Shown here in pieces: positions 4,046 through 61,131 of a stretch of DNA of 64,000 nt. The notes beneath the pieces were generated by a model. It searched no databases. It worked only from the letters and a program-made list of their open reading frames with translations, and was not told the origin of the DNA. The stretch is from Phoronis australis (Eukaryota; Animalia; Phoronida), in assembly GCA_002633005.1 (NCBI GenBank), contig NMRA01000253.1, forward strand, positions 445,251 to 509,250, written 5' to 3'. Position 1 is the stretch's first letter; each line of letters opens with the position of its first letter. Position numbers and translations under genes: made by a program.

Positions 4046-4120
4046 TCACGGTTCCACGGTTACGTTGTCAATTGCAATGTCGCTTCGAGGTCCATTCCCG
4101 ATAACTGCTCCAAAAACAAT
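4046..4120 (-). CDS. Terminal coding exon, C-terminal strand of the MAM domain
   Basis: Acceptor TTTTACAG, phase 0, matching the upstream phase-0 donor. Translates IVFGAVIGNGPRSDIAIDNVTVEP*, which fits the MAM I.FE...G...DIAIDDI motif. Stop is TGA at 4046-4048. Confidence 0.85.
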   Translation of the reverse strand: MVFGAVIGNGPRSDIAIDNVTVEP

Positions 4121-4457
4121 CTGTAAAAGAACCGATTGTGATTATTTGCCGACTACAAGGCATTTCCTACCAATGGGCGTATCGTAAATCATTACACTGG
4201 GGTGATTAATTGCGCAACGAGTATAATAGACATTGAATTCCTTACGTAGATAAGGACGCCGTCGATTGACGAACAACATCAGATAGTCTGATCTAAATAA
4301 TAACAAGAACTCATTGTCGTTATCATCCTCATTATCGATATTCAAATAAAACTACGTAAGAATAGAAATTCGTATTAGTATTAGTATTAGTATTAACGGC
4401 ACTTAGTACTGGTGTCACTCTTACATGGTTCCAGCATTGGTATTACATTGTTTTTAC

Positions 4458-4711
4458 CTTGAACGATCGGCCACTGATGCTAAAATTGACATTATGCTTT
4501 ATCCACTCATTGCCTTTATCTCCTTGCAACTGAGAGAGAGGAACGTAAAAGTTGTCGCCCTGAACAGCAATTTTCAGTATTCCCATATTTGATCCGAACA
4601 TGTAGGAAGCGAACCTGAGACACACAAGTGTATCCGAAGGATAGCTTCTTGTTGAAACAAGTTTGGCTACCTTGCCGTAATTTCCAGAAGCCTCCACATA
4701 TAGATAGTGAC
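4458..4711 (-). CDS. MAM domain core exon
   Basis: Acceptor TTTTTCTAG, donor AAG|GTAAAA, 254 nt (phase 1 to phase 0). Translates GHYLYVEAS...VCLRFASYMFGSNMGILKI...GDKGNEW...SFK, typical MAM motifs. Confidence 0.9.
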
Positions 4712-5058
4712 CTAGAAAAACAAAAACCTGCATGAACAAGCATTTGGGTTGACCAAATTGCACCTCGCCACCTCTGTCGATATGCCCGAAACTATTCCAT
4801 GCACAGCACGTGACAGGATTGACGGGGAAGTTGTACATAGGTATACCATTGCCGCTTACGATGCTGCAACTGCAAGGCACGCAACGCGACATTTTAGCCT
4901 AGAGACAGATAAGTAGCCTACTTTCAAAACCACGAGGTCAAACTTTTATATGTACTTTTGATGTTTGCAGTGTACTGTAAGGATTCTGGAAATTTCTCAG
5001 ATCAGATTATAACACGTACATGTAGTTGTATGATTAGAAATTAATTACCGCTAATTAC

Positions 5059-5208
5059 CTGTCGCAGGCAGAGTCATTTACGATGTGCGGCGGCACTAAT
5101 CGTCTCACCACACTTCCACCCTCACAGCAGGAGACGCAAACTTCCATTATTGAAATTGGCAATTAGCTGTTGGTTTTTCAGTTGCCTTTGTAGGCCCCTC
5201 AGGCACAT
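5059..5208 (-). pseudogene. Putative decayed linker + MAM N-terminal exon
   Basis: TTTGTTAG acceptor, CAG|GTAATT donor, 150 nt. The phase-1 frame reads DVPEGPTKATEKPTANCQFQ*. A shifted frame reads NFNNGSL...*GW, resembling MAM C.F....CGW. It lies directly upstream of the MAM core exon. Confidence 0.4.
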
Positions 5209-6345
5209 CTAACAAATAAAATTCCAGAGTTCATGATGTAGGTCCCGTCACCATAGGTAGACCAATTGAAGAGTGCCTCGCCAAAAGCTCGATGTCAAAG
5301 ACGTACAGATTGAGAGTGTTGTTTTCGTTAGATGCCCTAGTGAGGTGACCCGCTCTATCGGTCACTTGGACGACGGCATAACTAGGCACATAGGCCCACA
5401 ACATAGCACGGGATGGATGCTTGGCATTGAAAATGGTCCAGTAAAATGGCAGATTGCCAGAGCATATCTTGTATATAGTATATTGCAAATATGACAACGC
5501 CCGTGTTCAGATCCTGCTCAGAGAACTTGAAGAGAGCACGTCATATGTCCTCAAATTCCATTCAAATGCTGCCGGTGTATATGCTGTGGAATCCAGATCC
5601 TTACGCAAACAGTGGTTTTTCCAGAAGAGATGTGGAAGCCCTCAACCAGAGTCATTGCTGTCTGCTGAGAAGAAGCCGTCAGTTGCAACCACAATAGCAT
5701 CCTCACCTCCTAGATCATGGACTAGTTGGAAGCAGGGAGCCTCAGCAGCCACCTGACTATTCTCTTGCCTCTCTGTTGAGAGCGACAATAAATGCAGGTT
5801 GCTCCTTGACCCGACACATCACCAGACAGCCAGTCTGTAGCTGTAGCAATGGAGTGCACACCAAACAGATCGATGGTGGCACATACCGCCGTCAAGGTCC
5901 AAGAATCCTTGATTTACCTGTGGCGAGGAGCCATGCTGGTAGATCTAGTTGGTCGGAGGTTGTACGACTGAAGGATAGCAGCTGGAGTCATGACTCGCTT
6001 AAAACTCACTGAAACTTGATTGAGAAGAGGGTGCATGGGGCATGTTACTGTGTCTCTCCGCTGTTGACTCTGTATGACCACAACACTATGAATACCCCTG
6101 AGATACCGCAGAGGCGCACTGGAAGTATCGATATGACATTACCATGAGTTTTTACTAAGCAAGTGTATTATTATAATTGAGGCACAAGACTGGGAGACAG
6201 TCAGGTGGGATTTGGTATTTGAGACTTGACAAGGGCAAGTATTTATGAGCAGGAAGTTAACTATGAGCTAGCCACTTGCATCGTGGGTAGTAATATACTG
6301 CCTACACGTTCTGCGTCACGACGGACTGTGACCAGAAAGAGAAAT

Positions 6346-8682
6346 AATTGACCTATCGCCAGGATTATGACGGACGGCTTAATTGACCAATCAGAACGCA
6401 ACATTCTTGGCACACCTTCGTCTGCGTTTCCAAGCCGCCATTTTACCCGACAAACCACACGTAGTCGAATAAAACTTACTTTAGTCTATACCTCAAGAAA
6501 TTGTCCGCTTCGAATGAGGAAACGGTGCTGATATGGCGTGTGTAGCACCGAAAGCCGTTACGCTGCTCCAGAATAATATCCCGTCATTTGTGGCATGTCC
6601 TAAGCCGAAAAATGATGTTGAAAAGCGTAAACTATGGATAAACTGTACGGCCACACGAGCAGCTGAACTCATGGCGATATTGCTTGATAACTCGAAGGCT
6701 ATAATAAGCACAAATATATTAGTTCCAAGATACGCACTTTTCAGGTCAATTGACCTACCACAAGTTCCGCCCCTATGCGAAAAGTCACATGATACCCGAC
6801 AATCGAACCAGATGTCAGAGGCTAATACACTGTCGCTAAACGATGTTCCTGGTGGAATCGATGAGTGTTTTGCACTATTTGAAAACGCTTCGACAGAGAC
6901 AAGAGGCGATACTTTTCAACAGAAAATCGTACGTTCATGATATGGGAATTTGTAAAGGTGACGATGAAAAAATAAGTGCTGGAGGAGCCTGCGAAAATCC
7001 GAAGAACCTCTCGGCCTCGGGGCCACCTTCACCTGACAAATGGCTAGGCCACGGATACGATATGTTCTTGTAAAGCTGGGTATGTACCTTAAAGTCGAAT
7101 TATCTGTACGATTCCATAGATATCATGATCTTTCGAATAAAATCAGTGAAGATTCACCGATATTTTTATTCTGTCGTCTGCTAAATTTCGCCAAATGAAA
7201 AGTAGGTCACAACTGGTGGGACTCCTGGAGTAAAGTAGGTCATAGATTACAGACAGCACATGCACTATAGTCTCTGATTTGATCGACTCGATAGCTTTTC
7301 TAATCTTGTAACGAAATATTTTGATAAAAAAATCCAGGTTCATAGTTCAGGTACACACTCATCTCGTCGTTCGGTAGGTCTAGGACTGTGTCTAAGTAAA
7401 ATTAATGTCTGGAGTTCAGTGGCGGATCTAGGATACCACAGGGGGGCCCAACATATGTTGCCTCGTGGAATTGGGCAAAGTGCGATTCTATGTGCACAGG
7501 CGGCCAGGGATGTAGACCGTTGGACACTCTCTTCAGAAAATCTATCGGTGGACTAAAATAACAGGAACACGATTCCGCCGCGATCTGGGGTCTGAGCCCC
7601 CCCCCCCCTCTTCTGCTACCGGTCCTAGTTACTGAACTCAATATTTCCTCACGGTCTTGCTGTTTCATTTTGCTTGTGGCAGCCAAGGGGGGAACTGGGG
7701 CCCCTGCCCCACCCCTAAATCCGTCTATGGAATTGCCGGTTGCACCATTAAGACATTTAAATTAGGCCTACCTTCTTATGAACTTGGCATTTTTGTAGTT
7801 TCATCCCATAAAGGTAGCTTTCATTTAATTTTGAAGGTAGCATGGATCACTAATTCGTGGTATGGTTACAAAAGATTACAAGTCTGGTGTGGTAGTTGCA
7901 AAAATAGAGTATTTACAAAAATAACTCAAATTCTTTTTTAAAGCTTCATAAATCTAACAGCTCGACCAAGGCTTTGAGTTCCGACAGTAATCCAGTGCCC
8001 TTCCCTTTGCCGATCGAATCTCTGAATTTTGACCGGGAAAGAAGTTCAGTTGAACGCCAGCTTACGGTTTATGAATAACAAAACTGTACCTCTGATACGA
8101 AGCAAAATAATGTCCATTAGATTGAAATAAATAAAAAAACATAAAATAAAAATTTCCTTGAAAACAACAATTTCCGGGGACTACCGCTAGAGTGCTGAGA
8201 TCCAGCAGGTGCCGAGACAAAGGCGGCCAGACGTAGCAAACTCGGGAGTCAAAATCTGAGATAGTCCTGCAGCATAGCCCCCAAGCTGAAAAGTGCGTAT
8301 CTTGGAACTAATATATTTGTGTTTATTATAGCCTTCGAGTTATCAAGAAATATCGCTCATGTCCCGCTGCTCGTGTGGCCGTACAGTTTGATCCATAGTT
8401 TACGCTTTTCAACATCATTTTTCGGCTTAGGACATGCCAAAAAATGACGGAATATTATTCTGGAGCAGCATAACGGCTGTCGGTGGTACACACGTCATAT
8501 CAACACCGTTTCCCCATTCTTAGCGGACAATTTCTTGAGCTATAGACTAAAGTAAGTTTTACTCGACTGCGTGTGGTTTGTCGGGTAAAATGGTGGCTTG
8601 GAAACGCAGACGGTGTGCCAAGAATGCTGCGTTCTGATTGGTCAATTAAGCCGTCCCTCATAATCCTGGCAATAGGTCAATT
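6346..8682. mobile_element. Non-autonomous DNA transposon with ~395-bp terminal inverted repeats that carry a decayed THAP-like sequence
   Basis: 6350-6744 is the reverse complement of 8286-8678, with AATT on both sides. The TIR translates M(R/G)KRC*YGVC..DSRY...PKPKNDVEKRKLWI...HKYISSK (THAP-like, broken). Confidence 0.8.
7417..7729. mobile_element. MITE (CAGTGGCGGATC termini) nested in the long-TIR element
   Basis: cagtggcggatctag...taaatccgtctatg, flanked by GAGTT/GAATT (5 bp, 1 mismatch). Confidence 0.55.
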
Positions 8683-10131
8683 GGGGATATTCAGATAGTG
8701 CCTACACTTGTCGTTGGGTCACGAAGGACTTTGGCCAGCGTAGTGCATCATGGGTAGGACGATATACAGAATTGTGTTGCGCCACGAAGTACAACGTCGC
8801 ATTACAGCGTGTATTATTACGAGGATCGACCAACAGGACTGGATAGCAGACGTTTGATTGTTTACAGAGGGCGCTAGCGTACTCTCTCTTCTTCATTTTC
8901 GTGTGCTTAAAGTGTAATTTGCAAGGTCCAAGTATGTTAAATTGCAATAATATCTTCAAGGTATTGCTATTTGGATGTATTTTATTCAAATCATCGTATT
9001 ATTGTATCTTTAGTTATTTAAAAAAGCGAAAACAAGAAAATGCGCGAAAAGTTGACCTTTGACACCGTGACATGGTGTTGGGGAACACAAACCAGGTCAT
9101 ATCCCACAATGCAGTTCACTGCTATTATATCTCAGTACACGAAGAACAAAGACCGTTCAACCTTGGCGTGTTTTAGCCATGGTGCATCGGTGTGTGTGTG
9201 TGCTAACTATTTTAACACCACCCAGGTGGAAGGCATGAGCCCATTTAAATTCTAAAAAGACAAGCATCTGGCTGCGTAATGGCAGGTTTTCGTGTGCTCT
9301 GCTCGTCTTTTGAAAATGACTGTCGAGTCAGCCATCTGTCGAAGCCGAAATATGCTCCATTTTGAGGACGGCTGCTTTGACGACAAACACATCATGATGG
9401 TTGAAGGTGGTCTTATAAAAAGGTAAGTTACCTTGAGAATTTTTATGTCTAATAATTCATGACGCTTTCGCAGGGCCTGAACAATAACAATATCTTTTTT
9501 CACAATCACCGTAGTTCTCAAGTGTTTAAAATCTGTTGTTTTTCCGTGAAAGATTTAGTTATAAATGGATCAGTGAAACTAAAAGCCACAACAAATGAAG
9601 CTGATCTCAAAAGATGCATGTATTTTGAAAAGAATGCAGACTAAGAATAAAGTAAAACAGGATGGTAACTCAATTCCAAGGTTTTGATTATTAAAGTAGT
9701 CTATTTCAAAAAAAACAGGATTAAAATCTAGTTTTGGCATTTGCATGAAGGTTATAAAAGAAGGCGAAAACTTGCAATTAGATATCATCGTGTTTTACTT
9801 TAATCATGGACAACTCTGGATTCAAAATATTTTTTAGAAATTGATGCCCCTCCAATGCCGACTGCTGGTGCTCCAGATGTGTCCAAGGAGGTTGCACAGA
9901 TAAATTCAGACTTGGTGCTTTGTCAATGGACAGCACTGGAATTTTTTTCCGTCACATATTTAACAGTCACTATCAATGTTTTAGATCAAAGTTTTGATAG
10001 TGGTACAGATAGCAATGCCAGAGTGTTTATAGTACCAGTAGTGGAAATTGTGAAAAGCTTTTGTGTGTGGTATTTGGCTGTCCCATTTGTATAGATAAAC
10101 CCAGTGATATACTATGTTCTTATATTGAAAC

Positions 10132-10283
10132 TAGTGGCAGATATAGAGGGGGGAGCCATGCCCCCCCCCTAAAATTCTTCCAGATTCCATTTGACAGTTT
10201 GGGGGTGCGAATGTCTGACGGGAAAATCCTGGCTAATACCGTGCCCTGGCCCCCCCTAACTCAAAATCCTGGATCCGCACCTG
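10132..10283. mobile_element. MITE nested within the Kolobok (also present in copy 2 at ~60181-60288)
   Basis: tagtggcagat...ggatccgcacctg with a 5-bp TSD GAAAC (10127-10131, 10284-10288). Confidence 0.6.
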
Positions 10284-11384
10284 GAAACATTTCAATAGTT
10301 TTTCAATACAATGACTATAAATATTGTGGCATAGCTTTTTTAAGTATATTTGATTTGCACTAAACTGTTGCTGTCCCATACAGTGGGTCGGTAAAGGAAG
10401 ACTTTCTTAAGTGGGGGTGAAAAGGTACTTGTTTGGGTCGTCAGTCTTTTCGTGAGACAATCTCATCTAAATTGTACACAGAATAATCCCTTGCACAGAA
10501 TTCGAACATTGTCTTGGGAATTTTTGAGTGAGTGGTATAAGCACTCCCTCCAGATTTCCCAATTCCTACTCATGTGCATACTTTTTGTGTTTTCACACCA
10601 TGTCATAGACATCTAAAGCTATTGCATACTGGAGCTTTTGGGATGAGATTCAGTGGTTGCTGTGTCGTGTTATTTGATTTCTCATTGAATTACAGTAGAA
10701 CTCGCTAAGCTGTATCCAGTGAGACTGAGATATTTCATCAATGTTACAGTGATTTGGAGGCGTTACTGCGGAATAAATGCTAACCTTTCTAAAGTTCCCA
10801 CTGATGGGCTACCAATTTAGAGAGTTCTACTGTATAAGAACAGGGCAGAAGATTCAGTCTCGACTTTAGACTATGACCCAGATTCAAAACTTTTAATTTT
10901 TTATGTAACAGCCATACTGTTCAATGTGTTCGCTTCAAGCACACAAACTGGACACCAATGAGACCAATTCCCCTGTTTACCTAGGTAAACCATAAGTTCA
11001 ACTGATGTTGAGTTTAGAGGTTTATAATGTAGTCCTAGTTAAATTACACATGTCATGACCATGTTATTATAAGTAACCAGATTGATGAGCATCAATAAAT
11101 GCTGCTCGCTGTGTTAATTATTTACCATTCTGAAACCACGGAAGTCTATTCATGGAATGCCTACTTCAATTTCATGCCGCTGAGGTTGCACTGCGATTGC
11201 ATTCGTTTGTTACGATGTTTCATCTTTCTATGTAATTTGTCACTACAACTTTTTGCAACTCGCTTGAATTACATAAAACTAGTCCCCGAGTCACAAGTTT
11301 TTATAACAGAATACATAGGTCATGTGGAGGAGTTGGCATTCCAGGGCTAAGACAACTGTTGATATCTATAAATGGGTGAAACTT

Positions 11385-22958: not shown

Positions 22959-25391
22959 CTACAATCAGGCAGTGTAAGAAACTGGTTAATAATATTCGAA
23001 AAAGCAAAAACCACAACACGCATTGACAACAAACACCAGCTACCTTATAGAACTGTCATTAAGAGCAAAAACTTAATCAAATAGGCCAATAGCAAGAGCT
23101 GTGCTCCGTAGTCTTATTATTACTTTGCAAATTCAGTTTTAAGGACTTGAAACGTCACAATTTGAAACACATAATCTAACGGAGAGTTTAAATATTTCGA
23201 AAAATATTCTTGAACACCAGCCATCTAATCCTCAATTAAGGAGTTTATTTTGCATTTCACCATGATCTTTGAAACTGTGTGGCTTATCAAATGGCTAAAA
23301 TTTGGAAAAAGCGAAATCTTAATTGCATTTAGATGACGGAATCGTCAAGTTGGTGTGGGGACATCGACGGAGTTGGCAAATACATGTACGTATCTAAACG
23401 TAAAGCTATCAGAAGTCCGTCGGCTAGCGGAGAAGTGCGTGAACTTGTCTGATTGATTTTTACCCGTTTGGCACTGTGTTCACAAGATGAGGCCTGCCAA
23501 ATGTTGCAAAGACCGTGAACGTGGTGAAATTCATACCATTTCGACACAGCATAGTAGTGCCCGTAGGCCGGACGACCAGACGGAGATGACTACCGTTTAT
23601 GCACCCATCTACACAAAAAAAAAATTCTACCGCAAATCATTGCAATTGAGCCCACACAACTTAGTTTTACAGATGCACCTACATGTAATTGCAAACCAAG
23701 GGTACATGTCCATATATGTGCAAAACCATTGAGCACTTCGTGCCTTGATTAGGCTACCCTGGATATCGGCGTGCATTGAATGTTCTTTCAAAATGCAGGC
23801 ATACTAATCTACATATACAGAGTAAAGCAACTTTCTTTGAATGACATAGTGCCAAACGACCTTTATTTCTTGCTCTTGTTGACATAAAATTATTTTTCTC
23901 CTAAACAATTATCGTTTCGTGGCTCTCCTTCTGTGATTTCGGGTCGACATAATTCATGGTTTGAGGAAACTTTATTCCTGAACAAAACCGAAATTGACGT
24001 ATAATAAAATTTTGAATCATGCCAAGCTGCAAAAATATTCTTGAAAACACTTTGGAGAATCATTTTAAACGAATCAGGTAACTTGGAAGTTCATACTGGG
24101 TTTCTATGACTTGCGGCAACAGGCTCAACAATACAAAGATAATGATTGACTGTTTAATCACGAGCACGAAACGAGTCACCTGTCCAACGTTGGAATTTGA
24201 GTTACAGTACGATGTACAAATACATTTTGAATGTTTCATTGTCACGTATCTGTAGCATCACAATAACAGTTGAATGCCTCATTAAACGGAATAATATCCA
24301 TTTTTGTTGTGTGTAATCAACATAATCATGATTTGGTACGTTCGAACGGAGCTATGTATGCGCATACGGAGATTGACTTCTGTTGATTTGTTCGAAACGG
24401 TTTAGTGACCAAAGATCCGCGTCTGTAAGAAGTGAATTATGGTTGATGGGAATGGACCCTGTAACTTGGAAACGCATGACTAGACAGAGAAGGAAGGATA
24501 TCAGCAGTATTGATTATGAGCGTGAATGTTTTCTTTTCAGTCTATTTTCTTCTTTGCATGTTGATCTCTTTATTCAAGTCTATTTTTAATATTCATGAGT
24601 TCATGTATTTTTAAAACCAATTTCCGGAAAACCGCTGATCGAGCTTATATTTGATAGTGTCTACGTCAGCAATAGAGAAAATTTCAAGTTGGTAAATCGA
24701 AGTAAAATAGAAACTGTTTTTAAATGTAACAGAGCTTTACATACATTAATTTTACCGTAAAAATCGAACGTTTGTGTTTTCCTTTTTGATGTCTGACTCA
24801 AAGATAATGGAAACCAGTTGAATTTGGGGTGACATCCTTTTTTCAGAGTTCGCAATTGAGTCTTCTTGCGCAAAACTTCCAGAAACAACTGCAGAAGTAT
24901 CCTGATCTTCTTGCAACATAATGGCCTTTAGCTTTGAAAATGTTAAACCCGCATCAAAGGTCATTTCTTTCCAGGTGTAACATACAAAAATTTGTTTGGT
25001 CTGAAGTTTAAACGCCTTATTCGCCTAACTTAGGTGCAACTATTGCAAGTTTTATTGTAAATCCGACCAAAGTCGGGTTTCTTAGGACGGACAACACGAG
25101 AAAATCTAATTTCAGTGTTAACCTCCATGAAGACCTTACCTAGAGTTTTTGTAGTAACTAAGGCAAATGCAAAAATGTACAACTATGCGCAATCAAAACT
25201 GTCCTAAAAACAGCGTCCCGTTTCGTAGCAGTTTTTCAAAAAAAAACAGACCGTCAATGTTTACCAAAATCGTAAAATTGTCACTTGAGGGTTGAGAACA
25301 CCAGGAACCGTACAAAATGAGCAGGACCCAAGGGGCTGTATTCTTTATATCACGTTGTACTTAGCAAATTTTATTCAACTTGATGGTGGTT

Positions 25392-38651: not shown

Positions 38652-38813
38652 CTGGTGGCGCAGATGGCGTTGTTTCTGACGTTGTTGTTGTCACAGCAGT
38701 GCAATAACCGCAACTTAAAGCACAATTCTCCCTTGCCCATTCTTGATCCTCACCAACACAAGCCCATGCATAGTATTTTTTGCAGTCTTCCCTTTTGTCT
38801 CCACACTCAGTCA
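38652..38813 (-). CDS. Type-1 ShKT exon + linker
   Basis: 162 nt, phase 1-1. VTECGDKREDCKKYYAWACVGEDQEWARENCALSCGYCTAVTTTTSETTPSAPP. Confidence 0.88.
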
Positions 38814-39660: not shown

Positions 39661-39735
39661 AGCCGCTGAGTGGTGTAGTGGTAAAGTCGGCGACTCTAAA
39701 CTTTTGAGCCCAGGGTTCGATTCCGGTCTCGATTT
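39661..39735 (+). other. tRNA-derived (SINE-head-like) sequence within a unit-specific insertion
   Basis: A-box-like TGGTGTAGTGG and B-box-like GGTTCGATTCC. Stems do not pair into a proper cloverleaf. Confidence 0.4.
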
Positions 39736-41803: not shown

Positions 41804-42533
41804 ACAGGACCTAAGGGGCTGTATTCTTTATATCACAATGTACCTAGCAATTTTATTCAAATTGACCGTGGTTCGAAAGGTAAACGCTGAAACTGTGAAT
41901 AGGTCATCGTTGCACACAAGTGTAGTCAAATCTGTCCGAAAGACAATATAAATCATTTTGTTAACAGGCAACTACATATAGAATTCTACGTTGAGACTTT
42001 AAATGAGTAACTCGGTAAATTCAACCAGGCGAAAGAATAAAGTGCATATAGGGGGCATAGCACAAGTCGAGTTCATCTCAAGTTAACGACAGACAAGTTC
42101 TGCTCTGTCAAGTCTGATAACAATCCGTCACCGATAGTAACACACGTAAACATGAAAACTGTCACCCAGTGGACTTATTTAAATTCGTTAAAAATCAACC
42201 CAGTCAAGTTTTCGGTGCAATAAGTCTAAAAATAGAACTATTATCAAAGCCGCAATTTCCTAAATCTCTAGAGTCACTCGACCGTGACTAGCACTAAATA
42301 GCAACGAGGCCACTCTGAGCACCCGCTCAAAAGCAATATTGCATATATTCCTAGGATTCATCTGCATCTGGCTGGACTAGTTCACGCTTAATTTGTTGTA
42401 AGGGAAAATATATAATTCATAACATCGGAATGCTTGCAGATATCGCCAAATAACCCCCAGGAAACACCAGGCCAACTAGAACATAATGCAATGTAGTTAT
42501 CAGCAAAACGTTGCTAATCACATTTGTACAAAC

Positions 42534-42686
42534 CTGGTGGCGCAGATGATGTAGTTGTTGTTGTCACAGCAGTGCAATAACCGCAAAATAAAGCACACTT
42601 ATCTCTTGCCCATGGTGCATAGTCTCCAAAACAAGCCGATGAAGGATAGTCCTTGCAGTTCTCCAGTTTGTCTTCACACTTAGTTA
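42534..42686 (-). CDS. Type-2 ShKT exon + linker
   Basis: 153 nt, TGTAG|...CCAG|GTTTGT. VTKCEDKLENCKDYPSSACFGDYAPWARDKCALFCGYCTAVTTTTTSSAPP. Not in the ORF track. Confidence 0.88.
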
Positions 42687-44033
42687 CTACATAAATACAG
42701 GGTAAAAACTGTTAACAAGCTTGGACAAGCAAAAACCACAACAACCTGATAGAATTACGGTAAAGAGCTAGATCTGTTTCAGAAATGGCCAGATCTGCGC
42801 AGATTCTCACTCCTCTAATCACTTTCTAATTAGTGATATTCGTCATCGCTAATTCCGAATGTCTAACAGAACGTTTGCGTATTTCTTTGAGCTCAAACGA
42901 AACCTGTCAAAAAGGGATATATTCAGATCAGTCCAGACGTCATGAAATTGTCAACAAAATGAATCTTCTTACATTTCGCTACATTTTATGTTCCAATCTA
43001 CATGAATTTCTTTTCTACCGAGAAACCATGCAACTCTGCGCTTACGTCTGATTGTGAAGAAACATTGGTCCAACTGAGCATATAAGTGAAACATTTGAGT
43101 AGATCTTGCCCTGATTTTCCTACATCGTATATTATCTGTGTGCAATGAATATTGTTTTAAAAAGCAGCCATTGTTAATTTGCATGTAGTAGGAAACTTCT
43201 TTTGAATCACGTAGTGCCAAACAAGGTGTACTGTTCGATTGTCTGGGCAAGATATTTGCAATGTACTAAACTGTCTTCTATTAGTATTTAGAAAATGCTC
43301 CAAGCTCTTTATTTCACCGTGTCATTAACCCCGCAGGCTGTGTGAAATGGATTTTTCTATTTTAACTGCACAAGGTGTGTGTAAAATTGGAACATGATGA
43401 TGCGCCTGCACAACGAGACCCGCGTGTGCCTAGTTGCGGAGATAAATCGCATGACCCTACATGCAAAATACTCGGTTAAAAATCTTGTAAATCGCTTTGG
43501 ACCACTGCACTGATTTGCGACGTGTTGCATTAAAGGTAATCAATATGTGTGTGATATTTTCGCATTGCTGCGTTCTACAGATAACCGCGTAACTTTGATT
43601 TACTGCCAAGATGCCGTCGCTTTTGGAGCCACGTGACCACTCAAGTGAGAATGGTTTAAGAGCTCTACATTGTTAATAATTTCTTATGATTTCAGCGCCG
43701 ATGTAACTTACAAAACTCACATGGGGCTTATTTACAAATTTTCAAGTGTATTCATGAACGTGGTAACATGGCAGTGTTGCACTTAATGATAAATAATCAA
43801 ACCTTTGCAGCTGACACTCAAACGTTTTTGAAGAAACTAAGACAAACGCAAAAAAGCACCTAGCAACAGCCGAAATTAAAATCAGCGCCATACAGATTTC
43901 CGGCAGAAACATTCTAACGTTTCGTATCAGTATTTCAAACCGTTGATCAAAAAAGATGGATAACAAAATACACACCAAAATATTCAATTGCCACTTGGAG
44001 GCGCACAGAATTGGGAACCGTGAAAAAAGGCAC

Positions 44034-44202
44034 TGTTGTGTTCGTAGAACCAGTAAAACAACACAGATGAGAGTAAAATATAATACGTCTATTCGCTTGG
44101 AGAACTAATACAAGAAGGGGATGAGCACGTGGCTTGTGGGCATAAATACCACGTGACTATATTCTAAGGAAAACCACAGAGTAGCATTGCCAATACACAA
44201 CA
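44034..44202. mobile_element. Short solo-LTR-like insertion (169 bp)
   Basis: TGTTGTGT...ACACAACA ends and a 5-bp TSD GGCAC. Absent from paralogous units (aagcaccatagcgg). Confidence 0.75.
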
Positions 44203-44962
44203 GGCACCATAACGGATGTAAACTGTATTCTTCACAGAAACACATTTGTGAAATACCAAGTACCTACAAATTTGATCCACAATGATCGAGGTTACAATAA
44301 TGGTATCAACGCAGAAACGTTAAACTGAACACGTGTTTCAAGTAGTGGGGACTGTCCGACAGACAACATAGGCTCTTAGGCTACAACAGAACCTAGCTGT
44401 AGTATTACAAGACGAAACTTTAAGAAAGTAAGGCAGTGAATTGAAGCATGTGTAACAATAAACCAGCAAAGAACGCACATGGAAGCAGTCAAATTCTCTG
44501 GAAAGCTTCGAGAAAACCATCCGTTGATGCTAACAGACATTAAGATAGGTGTAAAAAACGAAGAAATTCACTTCAGCACGTATTCGTGATCGTCAAAAAA
44601 TCAATGGCATCCAAATTCTCCTTGCAATAGGTCTAAACTCCGGTAGCCCATTGTTAACTAACTACATCGAATGCGATATGTCATGAACATCGCCAACCTA
44701 ACGATTGTGGCAACGACTATATCGCAATGAGTCCAGTCCGATTATTCCCTCCTAGGCATTTTAGCACGTATTGCTTTCGTTTGGATAGCAATATGGCTTC
44801 AATTTTGCGTGTATCATTTGTTGTAGGTGAAAAAATGAAATCCATGTCTTTGGAGTACTTGTTCCTATCGCCAAAATAACCACATGGAACCGCATGACAA
44901 ATGAAAAATGATGCACATGATGTCACAGTTTTGAAAACGTTGCTAATCATGAGTGTACAAAC

Positions 44963-45121
44963 CTATTGGCACAGATGTCGTAGTTGCTGTCGATGTTGTT
45001 GTCACAGCAGTGCAATAACCGCAGCTTAAAGCACAATTCTCCCTTGACCATTTTGCACTCTCGCCAACACAACCCCATGCATATTTCTCGCAGTCTCCCC
45101 GTTTGTCTCCACACTCAGTCT
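44963..45121 (-). CDS. Type-1 ShKT exon + linker
   Basis: 159 nt, phase 1-1. ETECGDKRGDCEKYAWGCVGESAKWSRENCALSCGYCTAVTTTSTATTTSVPI. Confidence 0.88.
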
Positions 45122-46773
45122 CTACAACCAGGCAGTGTAAGGTTAAAAAGATTCGACAAGCAAAAACCACAACAAGCATTGACAACAAACACCAGCTACC
45201 TTGTAGAATTGTCATTAAGAGCGTAAACTTAATCAAACAGGCAATTAACAAGAGCTGTGCTCCGCAGTTTTATTATCACTTTGCAAATTCAGTTTCAATG
45301 ACTTGAAACGTCAGATTTTGAAACATAATCTAACGGAGCGTTTAAGTATTTCGAAAAATATTCTTGAACGCCAGCCATCTAAAATCCTAAATTAAGGAGT
45401 TCCCTTTCAATTTCACCATGATCATTCAAACTGTGGGGCTGATACCAAATGACTAAAATTTCAAAGGCGAAATATTGATTGCATCTAGATGACGGAATCT
45501 TCAAGTTTCGTATGAGTACATCGAGGGAGTTGGCAAGTACATGTACGTATCTAAGCGTAAAAGTATCAGAAGTCCGTCGGCTGGCACAAAAGTGCTTGAA
45601 CTTGTCTGATTTTTACCTGTTTGGCCCTGTGTTCACAATTTTGCAGTGACCGGCATGGTGCACGTTGGCCGGACGCTCGCAAGGAGATGACTACCGATGA
45701 TACGTCCATCAACAAAAGGACATTTTCTACCGCAAATCACCGAAATTGAGACCACCCGCTTAGTTTTGGAGATACACCTCATTGCAAACCAAGTGTGCGT
45801 GCCCTATGTAGATCTGAATCGTTGACTACATCGTGCCTTGATTTTGTAACAACGGAAATTGGAGCGCGCTGAATTTTCTTTCAAAAAGTAGGCACTTTAA
45901 TCTACTACAAAGCAAAGTGAATGACGTAGTATCAAATGAACTGTAATTCTTTTTCTTCTTGACAAGAAAGTTTTCTCCTAATCAAGTATCGTTTTGTGGA
46001 ACTCCTACAATTTTGAGTCGACTTAAAATGCGGACTGAGGAAACTTTATTCATGAACCAAAACTAAATTTTGAATAATGGCAACTTGTACAAATATTCTT
46101 GAAAATACTCTATGGTGAATCATTTTAAATGGGTCATACAAAATGGAACTTGGCGCTGTACTTCTCTAACTTGAGGCATTAGGCTCAATAATACTAATTG
46201 ATCGTTTCATCACGAACCTGAAACGAGTCAGATGTCCAACGTTGGAATTTGATTTACTATATACGAATATATTTTAAATGTCTCTTTGTCATCAACAGAT
46301 GTATCTGTAGCATCATGATCACTGTTGAATGACTCATTAAACGGAATAATATCCATTTTCGCTGAATGTACCAATATGATCATGTTTTGGTAGGTTTGAG
46401 CAGAGCTATGAATGGTCACACGTATAAAGTGTATCTTGTAATCTTTATTTTACTACTAAGATGTGGTCACTTTTGGAGCCACGTGACCACACAAGTGAAA
46501 ATTGTTCAAGAGTTCTATATTGTTACTAATCTCTTATAATTTCAGCGCCCATGTCACTTGATCAACTCACATGAGGCTTATTTACAAATTTTAAAGCGTA
46601 TTTTTAAACGTGGAAACATGGCAGTGTTGCACTTAGGCCTAATTAAATCAAAACTCTGAAGGTGACACTCGAAAATTGAAATTGGCATTTGAGCAATAAT
46701 GAACGCGAAACCATGTTTCCCTTCCGCAGAACCGCTCAAGGAAAAGACAAAGACACTATGATTTGAATAATGT

Positions 46774-49122: not shown

Positions 49123-49149
49123 CTTTAGTTGTCACAGCAGTGGTCGTTT
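49123..49149 (-). CDS. 27-nt linker micro-exon (ETTTAVTTK)
   Basis: CTTTTCAG| ... AAAG|GTAAGC, phase 1-1. The TAVTT sequence matches the linker that follows the array ShKT domains. Confidence 0.75.
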
Positions 49150-51850: not shown

Positions 51851-51979
51851 CTGGTTTTGTTACAGCTGGTTTACAGTATTGGCAGAAAAGTGGACAGTTG
51901 TGTCTGGCCCATGGTTCGAAGTCACCTACACAACTTGAGGTTGAGTATTTTGCACAATCGGCAATCCTGTCTTTGCATT
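51851..51979 (-). CDS. ShKT exon (type 3)
   Basis: 129 nt, TTTTAG|...CCAG|GTATTA. ECKDRIADCAKYSTSSCVGDFEPWARHNCPLFCQYCKPAVTKP. Confidence 0.88.
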
Positions 51980-52235: not shown

Positions 52236-52262
52236 CTTTAGGTTCGACTGGTTTGCCTCCCT
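52236..52262 (-). CDS. 27-nt linker micro-exon (EGGKPVEPK)
   Basis: ATTACAG| ... AAAG|GTGAGT, phase 1-1. Same length and same CTAAAG end as 49123-49149. Confidence 0.7.
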
Positions 52263-52831: not shown

Positions 52832-53290
52832 CTACGACACGGGTGCCGTACTGTAAACCCATGCATCTGATACGATGCTTTTAACATCACAACAACAGGA
52901 ACAAAGAATGCTTGAGACGGCAAAATGCTCAATCGAGTTGGTGGCACGTCCAAAATTTGCTAACTCTTGCCACGGGAACGTACCTCTTTTGAATATACGG
53001 AGATATCTCGCCGCGACGTACGTGGGTTTGCTCAGCGTATTGGCCGTAATATCGTTATTGAGTGGGTACTTCAGTAACGAAAATTCCATGTAGGGACAAA
53101 AAGAATTTTAACAGAAAAGCAACGTTACCGCATCGTCCACATAACTTAGGACAGTACTCAAATCCCCAATCCTTCTGGCTTCCAGAGCAGATGTCCTCCT
53201 TACTGTGCTGGTTACATGTAGTAAGTTTGTCGTCGCATTCTGAAATAACATATCGCTCACACAGTTTCCATCAACTCCATAGTAAACCAC
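52832..53290 (-). pseudogene. Possible decayed OTU/vertnin-like protease fragment, probably transposon-derived
   Basis: Two adjacent frames give GVDGNCVSDMLF...VRRTSALE and ...RGTF..ELAN...IEHFAVSSIL...VKSI, loosely matching OTU DGNC...ALS.VL...I.S. The resemblance is weak. Confidence 0.25.
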
Positions 53291-54436: not shown

Positions 54437-56370
54437 GCTGCAAGAAAACAAGTTATCAGTCTGATGTCACAGTTAAATTTGGTCGACCCGTGGCGCTTAC
54501 GTAACCCAAACACAACAAGCTATACTTGGTTCAGAATAAACCCTTGTAAGCAAGCCCGTCTGGACTTCTTTCTAGTGTCCGACGAATTTTCCTCTTGGAT
54601 AGAAAATATTGAAACGTCCCCAGGTTATAGAACCGACCATCATTGTGTCGTGACTACTATTCAGGCCTCTAAATTTGTTAGAGGTAAAGGTCTANNNNNN
54701 NNNNNNNNNNNNNNNNNNNNNNNNNNNNNNNNNNNNNNNNNNNNNNNNNNNNNNNNNNNNNNNNNNNNNNNNNNNNNNNNNNNNNNNNNNNNNNNNNNNN
54801 NNNNNNNNNNNNNNNNNNNNNNNNNNNNNNNNNNNNNNNNNNNNNNNNNNNNNNNNNNNNNNNNNNNNNNNNNNNNNNNNNNNNNNNNNNNNNNNNNNNN
54901 NNNNNNNNNNNNNNNNNNNNNNNNNNNNNNNNNNNNNNNNNNNNNNNNNNNNNNNNNNNNNNNNNNNNNNNNNNNNNNNNNNNNNNNNNNNNNNNNNNNN
55001 NNNNNNNNNNNNNNNNNNNNNNNNNNNNNNNNNNNNNNNNNNNNNNNNNNNNNNNNNNNNNNNNNNNNNNNNNNNNNNNNNNNNNNNNNNNNNNNNNNNN
55101 NNNNNNNNNNNNNNNNNNNNNNNNNNNNNNNNNNNNNNNNNNNNNNNNNNNNNNNNNNNNNNNNNNNNNNNNNNNNNNNNNNNNNNNNNNNNNNNNNNNN
55201 NNNNNNNNNNNNNNNNNNNNNNNNNNNNNNNNNNNNNNNNNNNNNNNNNNNNNNNNNNNNNNNNNNNNNNNNNNNNTTTTTGGAAGGATATTTTCCATAT
55301 CTTATACGAATTTATCAATCTTTGTGAGATAGAGGATCCTTTGTACCAACCTTTGTGGTATAACCCCAAAATCTGTATAGACAGCAATCCAATTTTTTGG
55401 AACGAGTGGTTTCAAAAGGGTATACGGTACGTATACGATTTAATTGACCCTGATAAGGGATATATTTATGATTATCATACCTTTTGTAAACGTTTTCAGT
55501 TTTGTCCTTGTATTACTCATTTTTATGGAATTCGAAGTTCAATACTTCGTTCTTGGAATCATCTAAGAGATAAGAGTACTGTAGTCACTCCACATTTTCC
55601 AGAACATATTTTTCGAATCTCCTCGGAAAATAAAGGGACTGGGAAAATCTATGAAGTATTTATTTCTAAATTATATGTAAAACCTGTCGCAGAATTGAAG
55701 TGGGAGAGAGAAATTAACTTATGTGATGAAACTCAATCTTGGAAAAAAATTCATTCTGTAATTTATCATTGTACTTCTGATGTCAGACTCAGATGGTTTC
55801 AATTCCGTATCAACCACAGAATTATTGGTACAAACTCTTATTTAAAGAAAATAGGTGTTAGTGAATCGTCTTTATGTTCTTTCTGTGAGCAACATGAAGA
55901 AACAATTCTACATTTGTACTGGGAATGTTCACTTGTTCAGAAGTTTTGGATATGTTTAAGAACATGGATGATAAATCAGTGCAATTTCCCTCTGCAGTTA
56001 AATATGTCTTCCGCCTTGTTTGGAGATCCAGCCTGTAGATTAGAAGCTGTAAATTTAATTCTTTGCTTAGCAAAATTCCATTTATATAGACAAAGATTAC
56101 AAAAGACTAAGCCCAATTTTCAGTCATTTTTACGTGAGGTATATGATTACTACAACCTGGAAAAAATTATTTACAATGATAAATTGGATCTTGAGAGATT
56201 CCAAGCAAGATGGTCTTTTTTGCCTAACTACATGTAGCTTCTATAGGGTCCGATAATGTTCGTAATTTGTCTGATGTACACTAAACTAGATGTCATATTG
56301 TCGCACAACTATGTACTGGTTGGTTGAGTTAATAAATCTGTTTTATTCATCAAAAAAAAAAAAAAAAAAA
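54437..56370 (+). mobile_element. L1/Tx1-type LINE, 5'-truncated in the endonuclease domain, young
   Basis: TSD GTTTCACTGAACAGTT (54421-54436, 56371-56386) and a clean poly(A) at 56352-56370. Endonuclease motifs DPWR..NP...YTW...ARLDFFL...TDH. Open C-terminal ORF2 to 56237 with CSFCEQHEETILHLYWEC. Confidence 0.92.
54695..55276. other. Assembly gap (N run) inside the LINE
   Basis: Run of N bases. Confidence 1.
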
Positions 56371-56807: not shown

Positions 56808-56968
56808 TATCCTAAGTCTTCGAGATTTTTCACGTCTAGCCAGATAATCGGTCTTTTCTCAGCTGCGGCAAATAGACTTAATTTGAGCTTAAGAACACGA
56901 GTTCTCGAAAACGGCTCTCTGAATTACGCTGAGACTTTCAAAACTTTACATCTCTTCATCAATCTTAA

Positions 56969-59900
56969 AGAGGAAATTGCAAGGTCCAAACCAATCTCAA
57001 CAACAACATGGTCTAAATTCTAGTTTATGATTATCATTGCTATATTCTTAACATTAACTGAATTGTACGCCGCTATACAAAGTTATTTACATATTCAGTG
57101 CCGTGGTGTTGTAACGTCATCGTTGTAACGGAGAATAGAAACGGCGCCATTTTCGTTCGTTACACATCTGTTACGTGGTGTTGGGAACACAAAGGAAGCA
57201 ATGTATGTCCAAGTGAGTACAGCAGCGTAGATGAGGAATACTTTGAACGATACAGGGACGGACAGGGGGACTTTTCAGATGATTCCGACCTTTCGGACGT
57301 GGAGGTAGAGGTGACAGATTCCAGAGGAACAATATGTGTTCACAGCTTTTCTGTAGTGGAGCCGTTCAACCTCGATCCCATTCACGGCCCCTTCTCTGGT
57401 CGCCGAAGACTCAATCCCAGCGGGTTCGTCCTGTGAACGTCAACAGGCTGAAGGTGCGCAGGAGTTGCGATTAGATGTTAGTGATTGGTAAGAATATTAT
57501 CAATATGTATCCTACAACAGCGAATTATAACTTGATCTTTTTTAATTCAAAAGTAGGTGCTTTACCAGTCAGTCCCAGGCGCCCATATTCCCATTGGTGA
57601 ATCGTGTTTCAGCCGTGGATAAATACCAGATTCAGTGATAAAACTGGGATTTTTTTTGCATTTTAGCAAAGTCACTCAAAAAGTGTTAGGTCTCTGATTA
57701 TTTGTAGACAGTGTGGCTCAGTGGTTTGAGCTTGTGAGACTCAGGTTCGAATCCTGGGTTTCACTGGCATGCAATTGAGCATTGAACAAAATTGTCTCTT
57801 CTCCGATACTAAGCTGGGTGTTACTAGTGAGTGAATAAATGTATACAAGGGAATGAATGAGAACCACTTTGGAATAATCTACTGTGAATTGTAAAGAAGA
57901 GGATGAAAGAATTGTAATTTTATAATTTAGACTTTCTCACCTTGGTGCTGGGGGAGGGCATAATTCTATAGGTTATAGAACAAGTCATTTCATTTTCGTA
58001 CTCAAGTCAACTCGGACCTATATCAATCTACACATGTGTTCCAAAACAGTTTTATTTTGTAAGGCGATGCTTGAAATGGAAACAACCATTCCATGTCGAT
58101 GTACATTGACCCGATGTTGCCATTATTTATAAATGAAATATGGTACATGGCTTGGTTACGAGTCGACTTGGGTAGGAACCGCCTGGTAAAGTTTCTATAG
58201 TGAAGAGTAAAGAGAGCATACCATTGGATTGGTGATTGCCCATATAGCATATCAAGAAGTTTTAATGAATACTGTAATATTTAAAATATGGGCGACCCTT
58301 TGAGTGGCAACACTGCTTTTCAAGTTGGTTTACCCCATTGTCATTGTCTAGTTTGATTAATGGTATGTGGGTGCCGATAGGATTCAGATTGGGAGAATAG
58401 GTCTCACGACTACATACAAAACAGTCCCCTCCATCAATGAATCAGGGCAACTACCTTTTGCCTTAGGGTCAGCTAAAAATCAAACAACTAATGTCCATTA
58501 CTATATCCCCCGGGCATGATCTACCACTGCCTTTAGTGTAGCACTATTCATTTGTATGAAAAGTAAATATCTTTACTATATACATGTATGATCAATTTGT
58601 ACAAAAAATAAATAGGTTGTGATGTTCCAACCAATTTTCCTGAAAACTGAAGTCGTATGCAGACCCCTCAATTTGGTAGAGGCACTCTTGGTAAATTTTT
58701 CAATTCGAAATTTTGATGTTTACTGAAATAATGTATTATTGTTGACACATCTGGCAGGTGCACCTGGGGCAACTGTCAGACAACCTCAGTTGTTGAAGAA
58801 AGAGTATGTTGCCAAGAGGTTGACAAGGTTGTTGCAAAACTTGATGAAGAAATGAATCGTGACAAAAGCCAATATCCTGATGGCTATGACAGACCCTTGG
58901 ATAAAAGGATTTGACCCATGGCCTACAAACAGTTCCAAAGATGGGTACACGGTCACTTAGGACGAACAGTCCGTGTTGTCATTCCAGCATGCGCAGTAGC
59001 CTGCATCAGAGCTTTCTACCCTCCGCCAGGAAATGAGGAAGACTTTGAGTTCCAAGGATTTTCTTAAAAGTTTCACCCATTTATAGATATCAACAGTTGT
59101 CTTAGCCCTGGAATGCCAACTCCTCAACATGACCTATGTATTCTGTTATAACAACTTGTGACTCGGGGACTAGTTTTATGTATTAATTCAAACGAGTTCC
59201 AAAAAACTGTAGTGACAAATTCCATAGAAAGAACAAACATCGTAACAAACGAATGCAATCGCAGTGCAACCTCAGCGGCATAAAATTGAAGTAGACATTC
59301 CATGAATAGACTTCTGTGGTTTCAGAATGGTAAGTAATTAACATAGCTAGCAGCATTTATTGATGCCTATCAATCTGGTTACTTATAATAACATGGTCAT
59401 GACAAGTGTAATTTAACTAGGACTACATTATAAACCTCTAAACTCAACATCAGTTGAACTTATGGTTTACCTAGGCAAACAGAGGAATTGGTCTCATTGG
59501 AGTCTAGTTTGTGTGCTTGAAGCAAACACATTGAACAGTATGGCTGTTACATACATGTAAAAAATTAAAAGTTTTGAATCTGGGCCATAGTCTGAAGTCG
59601 AGACTAAATCTTCGCCCTCTTCTTACACAGTAGAACTCTGTAAATTGGTAGCGCTTCAGTGGGAACTTTAGAAAGGTTAGCATTAATTCCGCAGTAACGC
59701 CTCCAAATAAGTCTAACTTTGATGAAATATCTCAGTCTCTCTGGATACAACTTAGCGAGTTCTACTGTAATTCAATGAGAAATCAGTCAAATAACACGAC
59801 ACAGCAACCACTGAATCTCAACCCAAAAGCTCCAGTATGCAATAGCTTTAGATGTCTGTGACATGGTGTGAAAACACAAAAAGTATGCACATGAGTAGGT

Positions 59901-60797
59901 ATTGGGAAATCTGGAAGGAGTGATTATACCACTCACTCAAATATTCCCAAGACAATGTTCAAATTCTGTGCAAGTGATCATTCTGTGTACAATTTAGATG
60001 AGATTGTCGCACGAAAAGACTGACGACCCAAACAAGTACCTTTTCACCCCCACTTAAGAAAGTCTTCCTTTACCGACACACTGTATGGGACAGCAACAGT
60101 TCAGTGCAAATCAAATATAATTAAAAAAGCTATGCCGCAATGTTTATAGTCATTGTATTGAAGAACCATTGAAATGTTTCCAGGTGCGGATCCAGGATTT
60201 TGCCCGTCAGACATTCGCACTCCCAAACAGTCAAATGGAATCTGGGAGAATTTTAGGGGGGCATGGCCCCCCTCTAAATCTGCCACTATTTTCAATATAA
60301 GAACATAGTATATCACTGGGTTTATCTATACAAATGGGACAGCCAAATACCACACACAAAAGCTTTTCACAATTTCCACTACTGGTACTATAAACACTCG
60401 ACAGTCATTTTCAAAAGACGAGCAGAGCACACGAAAACCTGCCATTACGCAGCCAGATGCTTGTCTTTTTAGAATTTAAATGGGCTCATGCCTTCCACCT
60501 GGGTGGTGTTAAAATAGCACACACACACACACACACCGATGCACCATGGCTAAAACACGCCAAGGTTGAACGGTCTTTGCTCTTCGTGTACTGTGATATA
60601 ATAGCAGTGAACTGCATTGTGGGATATGATCTGGTTTGTGTTCCCCAACACCATGTCACGGTGTCAAAGGTCAACTTTTTGCGCATTTTTCTTACTTTCG
60701 ATACAATAATACGATGATTTGAATAAAAAACATCCAAATAGCAATACCTTGAGTATATTATAGCAATTTAACATACTTGGACCTTGAAAATTACACT
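56969..60797 (-). mobile_element. Kolobok-type DNA transposon, copy 2 (inverted relative to copy 1)
   Basis: Reverse complement of 8911-13554, with TTAA/TCAA flanks. KolX-like exons on + (~57201-57487, 58758-59067). Lacks ~0.7 kb (copy-1 ~9325-10020) and ~0.1 kb of KolX exon 2. Confidence 0.88.
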
Positions 60798-61011
60798 TCA
60801 AAGACTTTATTAGGATTTTAGATATCGAGGACTAGTTTTTGCGAGTTGATTTGTCATACTAATCCTACGAGAAAGCTAATTTCCAGACTATTTTCTTTTT
60901 CGTTGAAAAAGCCTAGTTTTCATATATGTGGTAGAATGGAGGCCACCAAATACGGTTTGAGATAACATTAAGACACATGATTAAAAGTGAAAATTTACAT
61001 CACAGCATTAC

Positions 61012-61131
61012 CTGATATCGGTTTACAGTATTGGCAGGTAAGTGGACAGTTTTCTCTGGCCCATGGTTCGTAGTTACCTACGCAACTTGAAGTTCCGTAT
61101 GCTACACAATTGTCCTTCTTGTCTTTGCAGT
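61012..61131 (-). CDS. ShKT exon (type 3), the most 5' exon visible
   Basis: 120 nt, GTTCAG|...TCAG|GTAATG. DCKDKKDNCVAYGTSSCVGNYEPWARENCPLTCQYCKPIS. Flanks are paralogous to those of 51851-51979. Confidence 0.88.

Follow-up and report, generated by a model that had tools for sequence, protein, structure and literature searches.

Multi-ShKT proteins with Thr-rich linkers are common in molluscs. Mercenaria LOC123547587, Mytilus "mucin-2-like" and Ostrea LOC125659539 are built of many ShKT domains split by Thr/Pro/Ser-rich linkers, and some annotated isoforms are shorter by one linker or by an entire ShKT module. The multiShKL and M12/CAP-ShKT proteins of Cumia reticulata show frequent internal ShKT duplication, low-complexity linkers, and some domains without cysteines (available part of PMC6409789). 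The Toxocara mucins Tc-MUC-1 to 4, as cited in the accessible portion of PMC7333891, join SXC/ShKT modules to mucin stretches and reportedly have neither the Lys-Tyr dyad nor toxin function. ShKT-astacins with extra MAM, CUB, or EGF domains indicate that ShKT and MAM can occur together in one secreted protein (excerpt of PMC9848320), and tandemly duplicated exons of similar length are described for the Dscam1 exon clusters (excerpt of PMC6071210).

The minus strand of the 64,000-nucleotide stretch of Phoronis DNA analyzed here (the window) carries 13 ShKT exons, 10 of which form a near-identical tandem array, together with two 27-nt micro-exons. Their ShKT domains are of the type seen in the molluscan proteins named above (28 to 54% identity), and 48 of 50 related proteins have 2 to 10 ShKT domains, mostly with Thr/Pro/Ser-rich spacers. 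The named nonredundant matches in two protein searches (3 of 8 and 14 of 22) were all molluscan, and a search of the ESM Atlas returned only small unnamed ShK-like clusters. In three metagenome loci, a consensus donor was found at six of eight ShKT matches, all six in phase 1 (about five independent exons).

The locus also departs from each of these systems. None of the 50 related multi-ShKT proteins has a MAM domain, and ShKT and MAM were found in one protein in 0 of 200 fetched proteins. Unlike that of the ShKT-astacins, the MAM of the Phoronis locus is incomplete; the astacin motif HExxHxxG does not occur on the minus strand, and the Pfam astacin profile had no match in 59 upstream frames, the 5′ end of the gene, which could encode such a domain, lying beyond the window. 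The Toxocara mucins, in the same portion of PMC7333891, are nematode proteins with few ShKT modules and long mucin blocks, whereas the Phoronis exons provide one short linker per domain. The Cumia proteins are transcript-level, venom-gland sequences with one to four domains or an enzyme domain (PMC6409789, same part), and nothing points to venom in the Phoronis locus. We hypothesize, with a probability of roughly 0.7, that the window holds the 3′ part of a transcribed gene whose cassettes are spliced serially to their neighbors, encoding a secreted, mucin-like beads-on-a-string protein, and that its 3′ end is in turnover.

Exon anatomy

All exons lie on the minus strand. Upstream of the array are U1 (61,012 to 61,131; 120 nt; donor GTAATG), which is the furthest 5′ exon found, U3 (53,129 to 53,239; 111 nt; GTAACG), a predicted 27-nt micro-exon (52,236 to 52,262; GTGAGT), U2 (51,851 to 51,979; 129 nt; GTATTA; 81% identical to U1), and a predicted Thr-rich 27-nt micro-exon (49,123 to 49,149; GTAAGC), all of them in phase 1-1. 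No signal peptide exon was found in the window, and the 5′ end is placed beyond position 64,000.

The array consists of ShKT-plus-Thr-linker exons of two classes, A and B. Its intact members are A1 (44,963 to 45,121; 159 nt), B1 (42,534 to 42,686; 153 nt), A2 (38,652 to 38,813; 162 nt), A3 (36,195 to 36,356; 162 nt), B2 (34,069 to 34,221; 153 nt), A4 (30,839 to 31,000; 162 nt; 96% identical to A5), B3 (28,638 to 28,787; 150 nt), and A5 (22,797 to 22,958; 162 nt). In B4 (20,596 to 20,752; 157 nt), a complete ShKT domain (21.1 bits) is followed by a frameshift and a stop at 20,606, and the decayed copy A6 (17,437 to 17,590, start approximate) has no AG acceptor, no fourth Cys, and a weak donor. 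The original prediction, made from the letters alone, had already stated that two array exons must be skipped to reach MAM and had described the intact exons as phase 1-1 with lengths divisible by 3. Two array exons are indeed broken, and the second statement holds for 11 of 11 intact ShKT exons (111 to 162 nt) and for both micro-exons. Its 12 ShKT exons and two micro-exons are all present at the sites it implied, but the count was one short, as U3, with a Pfam ShK match of 22.9 bits, had been overlooked.

The six-Cys pattern is present in 12 of the 13 ShKT exons; the disulfides that define the domain family are C1-C6, C2-C4, and C3-C5. The Pfam ShK (PF01549) search proposed with the original prediction matched 12 of 13 exons, 11 of them at or above the 20.9-bit cutoff; B1, at 18.8 bits, fell below it, and A6 had no match.

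Array growth and the shared donor

All 10 array exons use the donor GTTTGT, and the exons outside use others, as had been predicted. Intron flanks are 84 to 92% identical within a class and, compared over 200 nt, 61 to 69% identical across the two classes. Downstream of the donor, all 10 copies agree at 77 of 176 ungapped intron columns, and the intron trees are near star shaped. Because the flanking introns of the copies are still this similar, we attribute the common donor to inheritance by tandem duplication. An older A/B exon duplication was likely followed by a burst in which an (A, B) unit spanning about 8 kb, introns included, was repeatedly duplicated in tandem, and GTTTGT would have been carried along with each unit. 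Compared with the molluscan proteins, the array is very young, with introns of 2 to 3 kb that are still 84 to 92% alike and alignable, and it ends in broken copies. Predicted U1 pairing of the nine donors from A1 to B4 (−7.3 to −8.9 kcal/mol) is ordinary, inside the range of the five outside donors (−5.5 to −12.3 kcal/mol). The shared donor therefore lends no support to a cassette-selection reading, since duplication explains it.

Shuffled extracellular modules are as a rule of class 1-1 (available part of PMC8001218). The symmetric phase 1-1 cassettes follow this default for extracellular animal modules, and no selector mechanism is needed to explain them. As each module is symmetric, duplication, loss, and occasional skipping all preserve the frame. 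The locus offers a clean case of a domain repeat that has grown as class 1-1 exons were duplicated in tandem.

Transcription and serial splicing

Three stranded RNA runs (X1, X2, and X3) of low depth (about 1 to 10 per exon) were used together with a contig from a fourth (X4), all four picked by species label; the mapping covered the gene from 45,400 downstream, except for the stretch from 23,200 to 27,950. In the exon bins, reads ran nearly all in the direction expected of minus-strand RNA. The locus is transcribed and is therefore not a silent pseudogene.

Reads joined neighboring array copies at predicted GT-AG sites in three places. A2 was joined to A3 by four reads with two starts in X1, and A3 was joined to B2 by one read in X2 and by the X4 contig at a depth of 17.8. 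B3 was joined to an A5-type exon by three reads each in X1 and X2; these were placed on A4, where the majority of reads carry letters of A5. Thus, several ShKT domains occur in one chain. Three of the seven neighbor joints between A1 and A5 were among the joints listed; A1-B1, B1-A2, an unambiguous B2-A4, and A4-B3 were not among them. A first mapping was swamped by transposon reads; of its 33 joints, 15 were listed, and of its 781 loose ends, 24, with no ShKT or MAM exon among them. A5-B4, A5-MAM, and B4-T19 were accordingly not among the joints listed, and a further 115 loose ends of the second mapping lay outside its listing.

These joints bear directly on the idea, part of the original prediction, that the array is a mutually exclusive, Dscam-like one. 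In such a system, each transcript would take one cassette, selected by RNA structures that compete with each other or by a weak donor common to all copies. Tandem exons alike in length and sequence with a single donor hexamer would suit this reading, and exons duplicated in tandem frequently come to be used in a mutually exclusive way (excerpt of PMC6071210). However, A2-A3, A3-B2, and B3-A5 are three different joints within the array, and strict mutually exclusive splicing is therefore refuted. In contrast to the Dscam1 clusters as described in that excerpt, neighbors are co-included, no docking/selector pair was found, and each exon encodes a whole domain plus linker rather than part of a domain. 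Exact docking/selector complements within the array reached 9 to 13 nt at the longest, against a null maximum of 12 to 15 nt. The array introns are 2 to 3.7 kb long and have no U12 signals, and all exons are 3n; U12, steric, and frame-based exclusion were each looked for among the array exons, and none was found. We regard one-cassette choice as extremely improbable.

Since reads join neighboring copies in series, the product is probably a secreted protein of the ordinary beads-on-a-string kind, made with some skipping of exons, and not the output of a Dscam-like one-of-many switch. Spliced in this way, the cassettes would likely yield a mucin-like chain with up to 11 to 12 ShKT domains. This was the alternative offered by the original prediction, and it is supported by the neighbor joints at predicted sites and from the many relatives of like build.

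Uneven use of cassettes

Coverage was uneven among exons and runs. Reads on A1 and A2 came from X1, and X2 and X3 contributed hardly any (approximate Fisher P values of 5e-5 to 0.013); reads on A6 in X1 were likely cross-placed from A1 to A3. Taken together, B1 and B4 did not exceed about 200 letters in any run. Two joints looked like skips. One, of two reads, linked an A1/A3-type end to the stop-carrying, T19-type exon at 19,580, which is not a neighbor; the other, of four reads in X3 and ambiguous, linked B2 to an A4/A5-type start bearing the first base of A5. Given these joints, the restriction of A1 and A2 to X1, and the scarcity of B1 and B4, one constitutive isoform does not account for everything observed.

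One explanation is regulated skipping, in which the sample or tissue picks a cassette subset and either T19 or MAM as the 3′ end, all from one allele. In the reference, the A1/A3-T19 joint requires that at least one cassette be skipped, or five if A3 is joined to T19; the MAM region had reads in X2 and X3 only, and the T19 bin had reads in X1 and X3 only; and RefSeq models of a relative from the clam Mercenaria are set apart by one entire ShKT module. The two odd joints, however, could be made of duplicates or mates, and a regulatory element was looked for in the array and not found. Moreover, a single base separates A4 from A5 over their first 42 nt, so that an allele explains the B2 joint. 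Among the papers listed by literature searches, which included unrelated word matches, none dealt with ShK-domain exons spliced in a regulated or mutually exclusive manner. We consider regulated skipping unlikely.

Alternatively, transcripts may be near constitutive within each haplotype, with unequal crossing-over altering the number and order of units and with the first MAM exon lost from the reference haplotype or assembly. The young 8-kb units, two of them partial (A2 and A6), the star-like intron trees, and two N gaps in the gene would favor such variation, as would position 45,078, where all 10 X1 reads depart from the reference, and the absence of the whole A1, B1, and A2 blocks from two runs. 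On the other hand, 3′ bias would likewise thin upstream exons, and the copies, 8 to 16% diverged, are too far apart for the array to stem mainly from collapse or duplication in the assembly. This reading seems to us quite improbable. The odd joints and uneven cassette reads fit skipping and haplotype differences equally, and the combinatorial part of the original prediction survives only weakly.

It is also conceivable, though doubtful, that a very young array is becoming a variable-repertoire gene in which individuals or tissues vary their cassette subsets and switch between the new T19 end and the old MAM end; one locus would then supply many ShKT combinations. If cassette choice were regulated within one genotype, the gene would be a candidate diversity generator for invertebrate mucosal or defense proteins. 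Taken as ordinary, the gene would be a further multi-ShKT mucin-like member of a large, functionally dark family.

MAM exons and probable turnover of the 3′ end

A complete MAM domain has about 160 residues and two disulfides. The MAM middle exon (4,458 to 4,711; phase 1-0) matches only positions 44 to 127 of the 158 positions of Pfam MAM (PF00629), and the last exon (4,046 to 4,120), which ends at the stop and lacks the final Cys, matches positions 131 to 152; AATAAA follows at 3,489 and 3,450. Together they cover positions 44 to 152, with one Cys. A profile built on the first 50 MAM positions found nothing in any frame of the readable window with stops as X (best, 5.2 bits, compared with a median of 44 bits over 1,070 matches in fetched proteins); two N gaps inside the gene, of 899 and 582 nt, lie outside this readable sequence. 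The N-terminal third is therefore missing from the readable window, and no exon subset splices onto a whole MAM in this assembly. The original prediction had any subset joining in frame onto the MAM exon, which proves to be the middle of the domain only; the proposed MAM profile check thus recovered both exons and left the first third unmatched. No ShKT-MAM joint was among the RNA joints listed, and a word-based search with the MAM exon gave no match. A search of sequencing runs with positions 3,430 to 4,720 listed no RNA run, which speaks neither for nor against expression there.

T19 (19,375 to 19,580, 3′ end estimated) is a small candidate terminal exon with an AG acceptor, four codons, a stop, and an AATAAA at 19,394. 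It sits inside the last repeat unit and has three homologous copies, all of which lack an acceptor. Its bin held 126, 0, and 126 letters in the three runs versus 1,703, 1,013, and 490 at A5, which weakens T19 as the main last exon. Broken last copies, a MAM without its first third and last Cys, and a T19 used by few reads would make this 3′ end a likely case of turnover, with an acceptor in one of four copies.

ShKT domains and linkers

The tails of the nine array exons A1 to B4 contain 5 to 10 Thr plus Ser per 11 to 16 residues and may be O-glycosylated. The pN/pS of the ShKT cores is 0.43 in class A (10 pairs) and 0.35 in class B (6 pairs). ShK-type K+ channel toxins carry a Lys-aromatic dyad before the fourth Cys and are freed as a small peptide. 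Lys stands at the corresponding place in 1 of the 12 six-Cys domains (A1) and is absent from 11, and the domains belong to a single long frame; a toxin identity was accordingly rejected, and a nontoxin scaffold or mucosal role would be the better fit.

Four 18-nt micro-exon candidates within the array (40,231; 33,174; 25,157; and 19,748) were not counted as exons because the B3-A5 and B2-A joints skip past two of them. A 21-nt candidate at 63,589 was dropped, as it sits in a repeat.

Architecture of the ShKT gene

The gene is read from the minus strand, and a profile search of the whole window in six frames found 13 ShKT-like stretches, with none further above noise: three upstream exons, U1 (61,131-61,012), U3 (53,239-53,129), and U2 (51,979-51,851), all on the minus strand, and an array (45,121-17,437) whose ten copies fall into two types and are arranged as A1 B1 A2 A3 B2 A4 B3 A5 B4 A6. 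The Pfam ShK model matched 12 of these stretches, 11 at or above the cut-off. The original prediction had overlooked U3 and counted 12 ShKT exons; its anatomy of ShKT exons and micro-exons was otherwise confirmed, including the shared phase and donor. The 11 intact ShKT exons and two 27-nt micro-exons are all phase 1-1 with lengths divisible by three, and GTTTGT is the donor of all ten array exons. B4 (157 nt) has a stop at 20,606, 3' of a complete domain, and A6 lacks an acceptor and one Cys. Each repeat unit also contains one 18-nt phase 1-1 micro-exon look-alike (40,231-40,214; 33,174-33,157; 25,157-25,140; and at 19,748), two of them with a strong GTAAGG donor; the observed joints pass over these.

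Splicing of the array

Three stranded raw RNA runs (X1 to X3, about one-fifth of each used) and one contig set, all labeled Phoronis australis, covered 3,300-23,200 and 27,950-45,400. Reads in exon bins were oriented as for RNA from the minus strand, with a depth of about 1 to 10. Among the joints listed, A2-A3 was found in four reads with the predicted sites exact, and A3-B2 in one read and one contig. A joint from B3 (3 + 3 reads) was placed on A4 yet starts with the base of A5, which lay outside the compared stretch, and A5 letters also occur in 5 of 7 and 6 of 8 reads of the joined exon; the joint is therefore B3-A5. Because a mutually exclusive array forbids joints between neighbors, these three refute the Dscam-like choice that had been proposed and bear out the other proposal, a bead-on-string protein: this is an expressed gene whose neighboring ShKT-linker exons are co-spliced in series. 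None of the known mechanisms of exon exclusion listed in the available part of PMC6071210 is present in the array; its introns are 2 to 3.7 kb long, all its exons have lengths divisible by three, and U12 signals are absent. Exact complementarity between exon flanks and unique introns, scored as exact pairings only, was at the level of shuffled sequence.

Several observations depart from one constitutive isoform. In four X3 reads, B2 is spliced to an exon of the A4/A5 type that carries the first base of A5, which fits either skipping of both A4 and B3 or an allele of A4. Two X1 reads join an A1/A3-type end, via letters AT, to T, the stretch 3' of B in the repeat unit; in the reference a B exon precedes each T copy, so either skipping or a different haplotype is required for this joint. 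Among the four T copies, an AG acceptor followed by AT occurs only in the one at 19,580, and this candidate terminal exon (T19) reads four codons and then a stop, with AATAAA 186 nt further on. Exon use was uneven between runs: A1 had 1,020 letters in X1, 29 in X2, and none in X3, and A2 had 535, 0, and none (rough p, 5e-5 to 0.013). Reads of B4 were expected to fall on B1 in the 27,950-45,400 placement, and the B1 bin is low (204, 0, and 122 letters in the three runs), so most transcripts omit B4 or those that include it are eliminated. The B4 stop would invite nonsense-mediated decay if the MAM exons follow but not where T19 is the final exon. Exon skipping and copy-number haplotypes fit these odd joints and the uneven exon use equally well, and 3' bias would likewise deplete upstream exons; regulated combinatorial splicing, the remaining part of the combinatorial claim, we consider improbable.

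The MAM remnant

The two MAM exons 3' of the array (4,711-4,458 and 4,120-4,046) span profile positions 44-152 of 158, and the first third was not found in the window in any frame with stops read as X (best, 5.2 bits; median of real ones, 44 bits), so that in this assembly no set of cassettes can be spliced onto a complete MAM domain. The remnant has one Cys and ends before the place of the final Cys, which 10 of the top 12 relatives listed possess. Right-strand reads on these exons and their 3' UTR were few in X2 and X3, with none in X1, and the exons may belong to another gene starting outside the window. The co-occurrence of ShKT and MAM invoked earlier is described for astacins in the part of PMC9848320 available, but the window holds no astacin sign, and none of 200 fetched proteins pairs them (MAM in 0 of 50 ShKT proteins, ShKT in 0 of 150 MAM proteins). 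Nearby, 4,900-5,950 is GC-richer and coding-like, with a 66-nt exon candidate (5,772-5,707) and a few reads, mostly in the direction of minus-strand RNA (mean depth up to 1.2 in X1); this stretch could represent an unrecognized exon or what is left of a transposon.

Origin of the array

Self-comparison gave blocks of 1.4 to 5.5 kb at 78 to 89% identity. The repeat unit is A, B, and T, with A2 and A6 as partial units, and homology ends about 830 nt 3' of A6. Intron flanks are 84 to 92% identical within a class and 61 to 69% between A and B, the closest pairs being A4/A5 and B3/B4. As 77 of 176 ungapped columns after the donor are invariant in all ten copies, the common GTTTGT is what descent plus normal selection on splice sites would produce. 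Pairing of this donor with U1 is predicted at -7.3 to -8.9 kcal/mol, intermediate for the gene, because CAG or TAG 5' of the donor and G and T at +5 and +6 compensate. The pN/pS of the ShKT core was 0.43 (A) and 0.35 (B), from small counts and nonindependent pairs. Extracellular modules that spread by shuffling are as a rule phase 1-1, ShK and MAM being unnamed in the part of PMC8001218 available. Among eight ShKT exons examined in three unrelated metagenome contigs, a donor was found in six, all phase 1; these contigs (L001-L003; about 38% GC) are animal DNA with compact multi-exon ShKT genes, three domains seen in each.

Single array units contain high-copy repeats (39,485-39,810; 40,357-40,727; 41,627-41,803; 44,033-44,202) with reads on both strands, an 899-nt N gap lying between two of them, and one unit alone has a 2.5-kb insertion (25,400-27,950).

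Relatives and proposed product

Searches starting from the ShKT alignment and from a seven-domain hit yielded relatives that have 2 to 10 ShKT domains with Thr/Pro/Ser-rich spacers; several come from single transcript-sized contigs, and the named ones are all molluscan. At the place that we take, from its spacing, to be that of the dyad Lys, 11 of 12 ShKT domains in the window have no Lys. Mercenaria LOC123547587 has RefSeq annotation models with 8, 8, 7, 7, and 6 ShKT domains, predicted isoform X3 lacking exactly one module and X4 the same module plus a linker. Internal ShKT duplication in Cumia (PMC6409789) and ShKT mucins without the dyad in nematodes and a limpet (PMC7333891) are described in the available parts of those sources. 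The original observation is real and was well described, but the gene is an ordinary further case of the multi-ShKT mucin-like kind.

The product is probably secreted and O-glycosylated, a string of small disulfide-rich beads that would give mucus or extracellular matrix a multivalent scaffold. Because each module keeps frame, chain length could change easily through unequal crossing-over and leaky skipping. Less certainly, the first MAM exon may be missing from this haplotype through loss at an old MAM-bearing end, the two final array copies may have decayed, and the last T copy may have gained its acceptor, which its sister and both other copies lack, although the rooting is weak.

Transposons beside the array

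An inverted pair of DNA transposon copies (8,907-13,558 and 56,965-60,801; 91 to 94% identical) flanks the array. Copy 1 is flanked by TTAA at either end and bears terminal inverted repeats and AG...CT ends, and a decayed frame matches Pfam P2RX7_C below the cut-off (21.8 bits); this fits a Kolobok Kol0 element with KolX, as far as the available part of PMC9587614 describes it. Transcribed into a single pre-mRNA, the two copies would be long inverted repeats that might loop the array out entirely. An intron of the family's KolX-like gene (1,242 nt; 11,790-13,033; ends CT..AC) is spliced out in reads of all four runs; these reads probably come from other transposon copies. On the plus strand, 55,278-56,250 is the open 3' end of a LINE-like element (Pfam zf-RVT, 36.9 bits); it has a poly-A tail and adjoins a 582-nt N gap.
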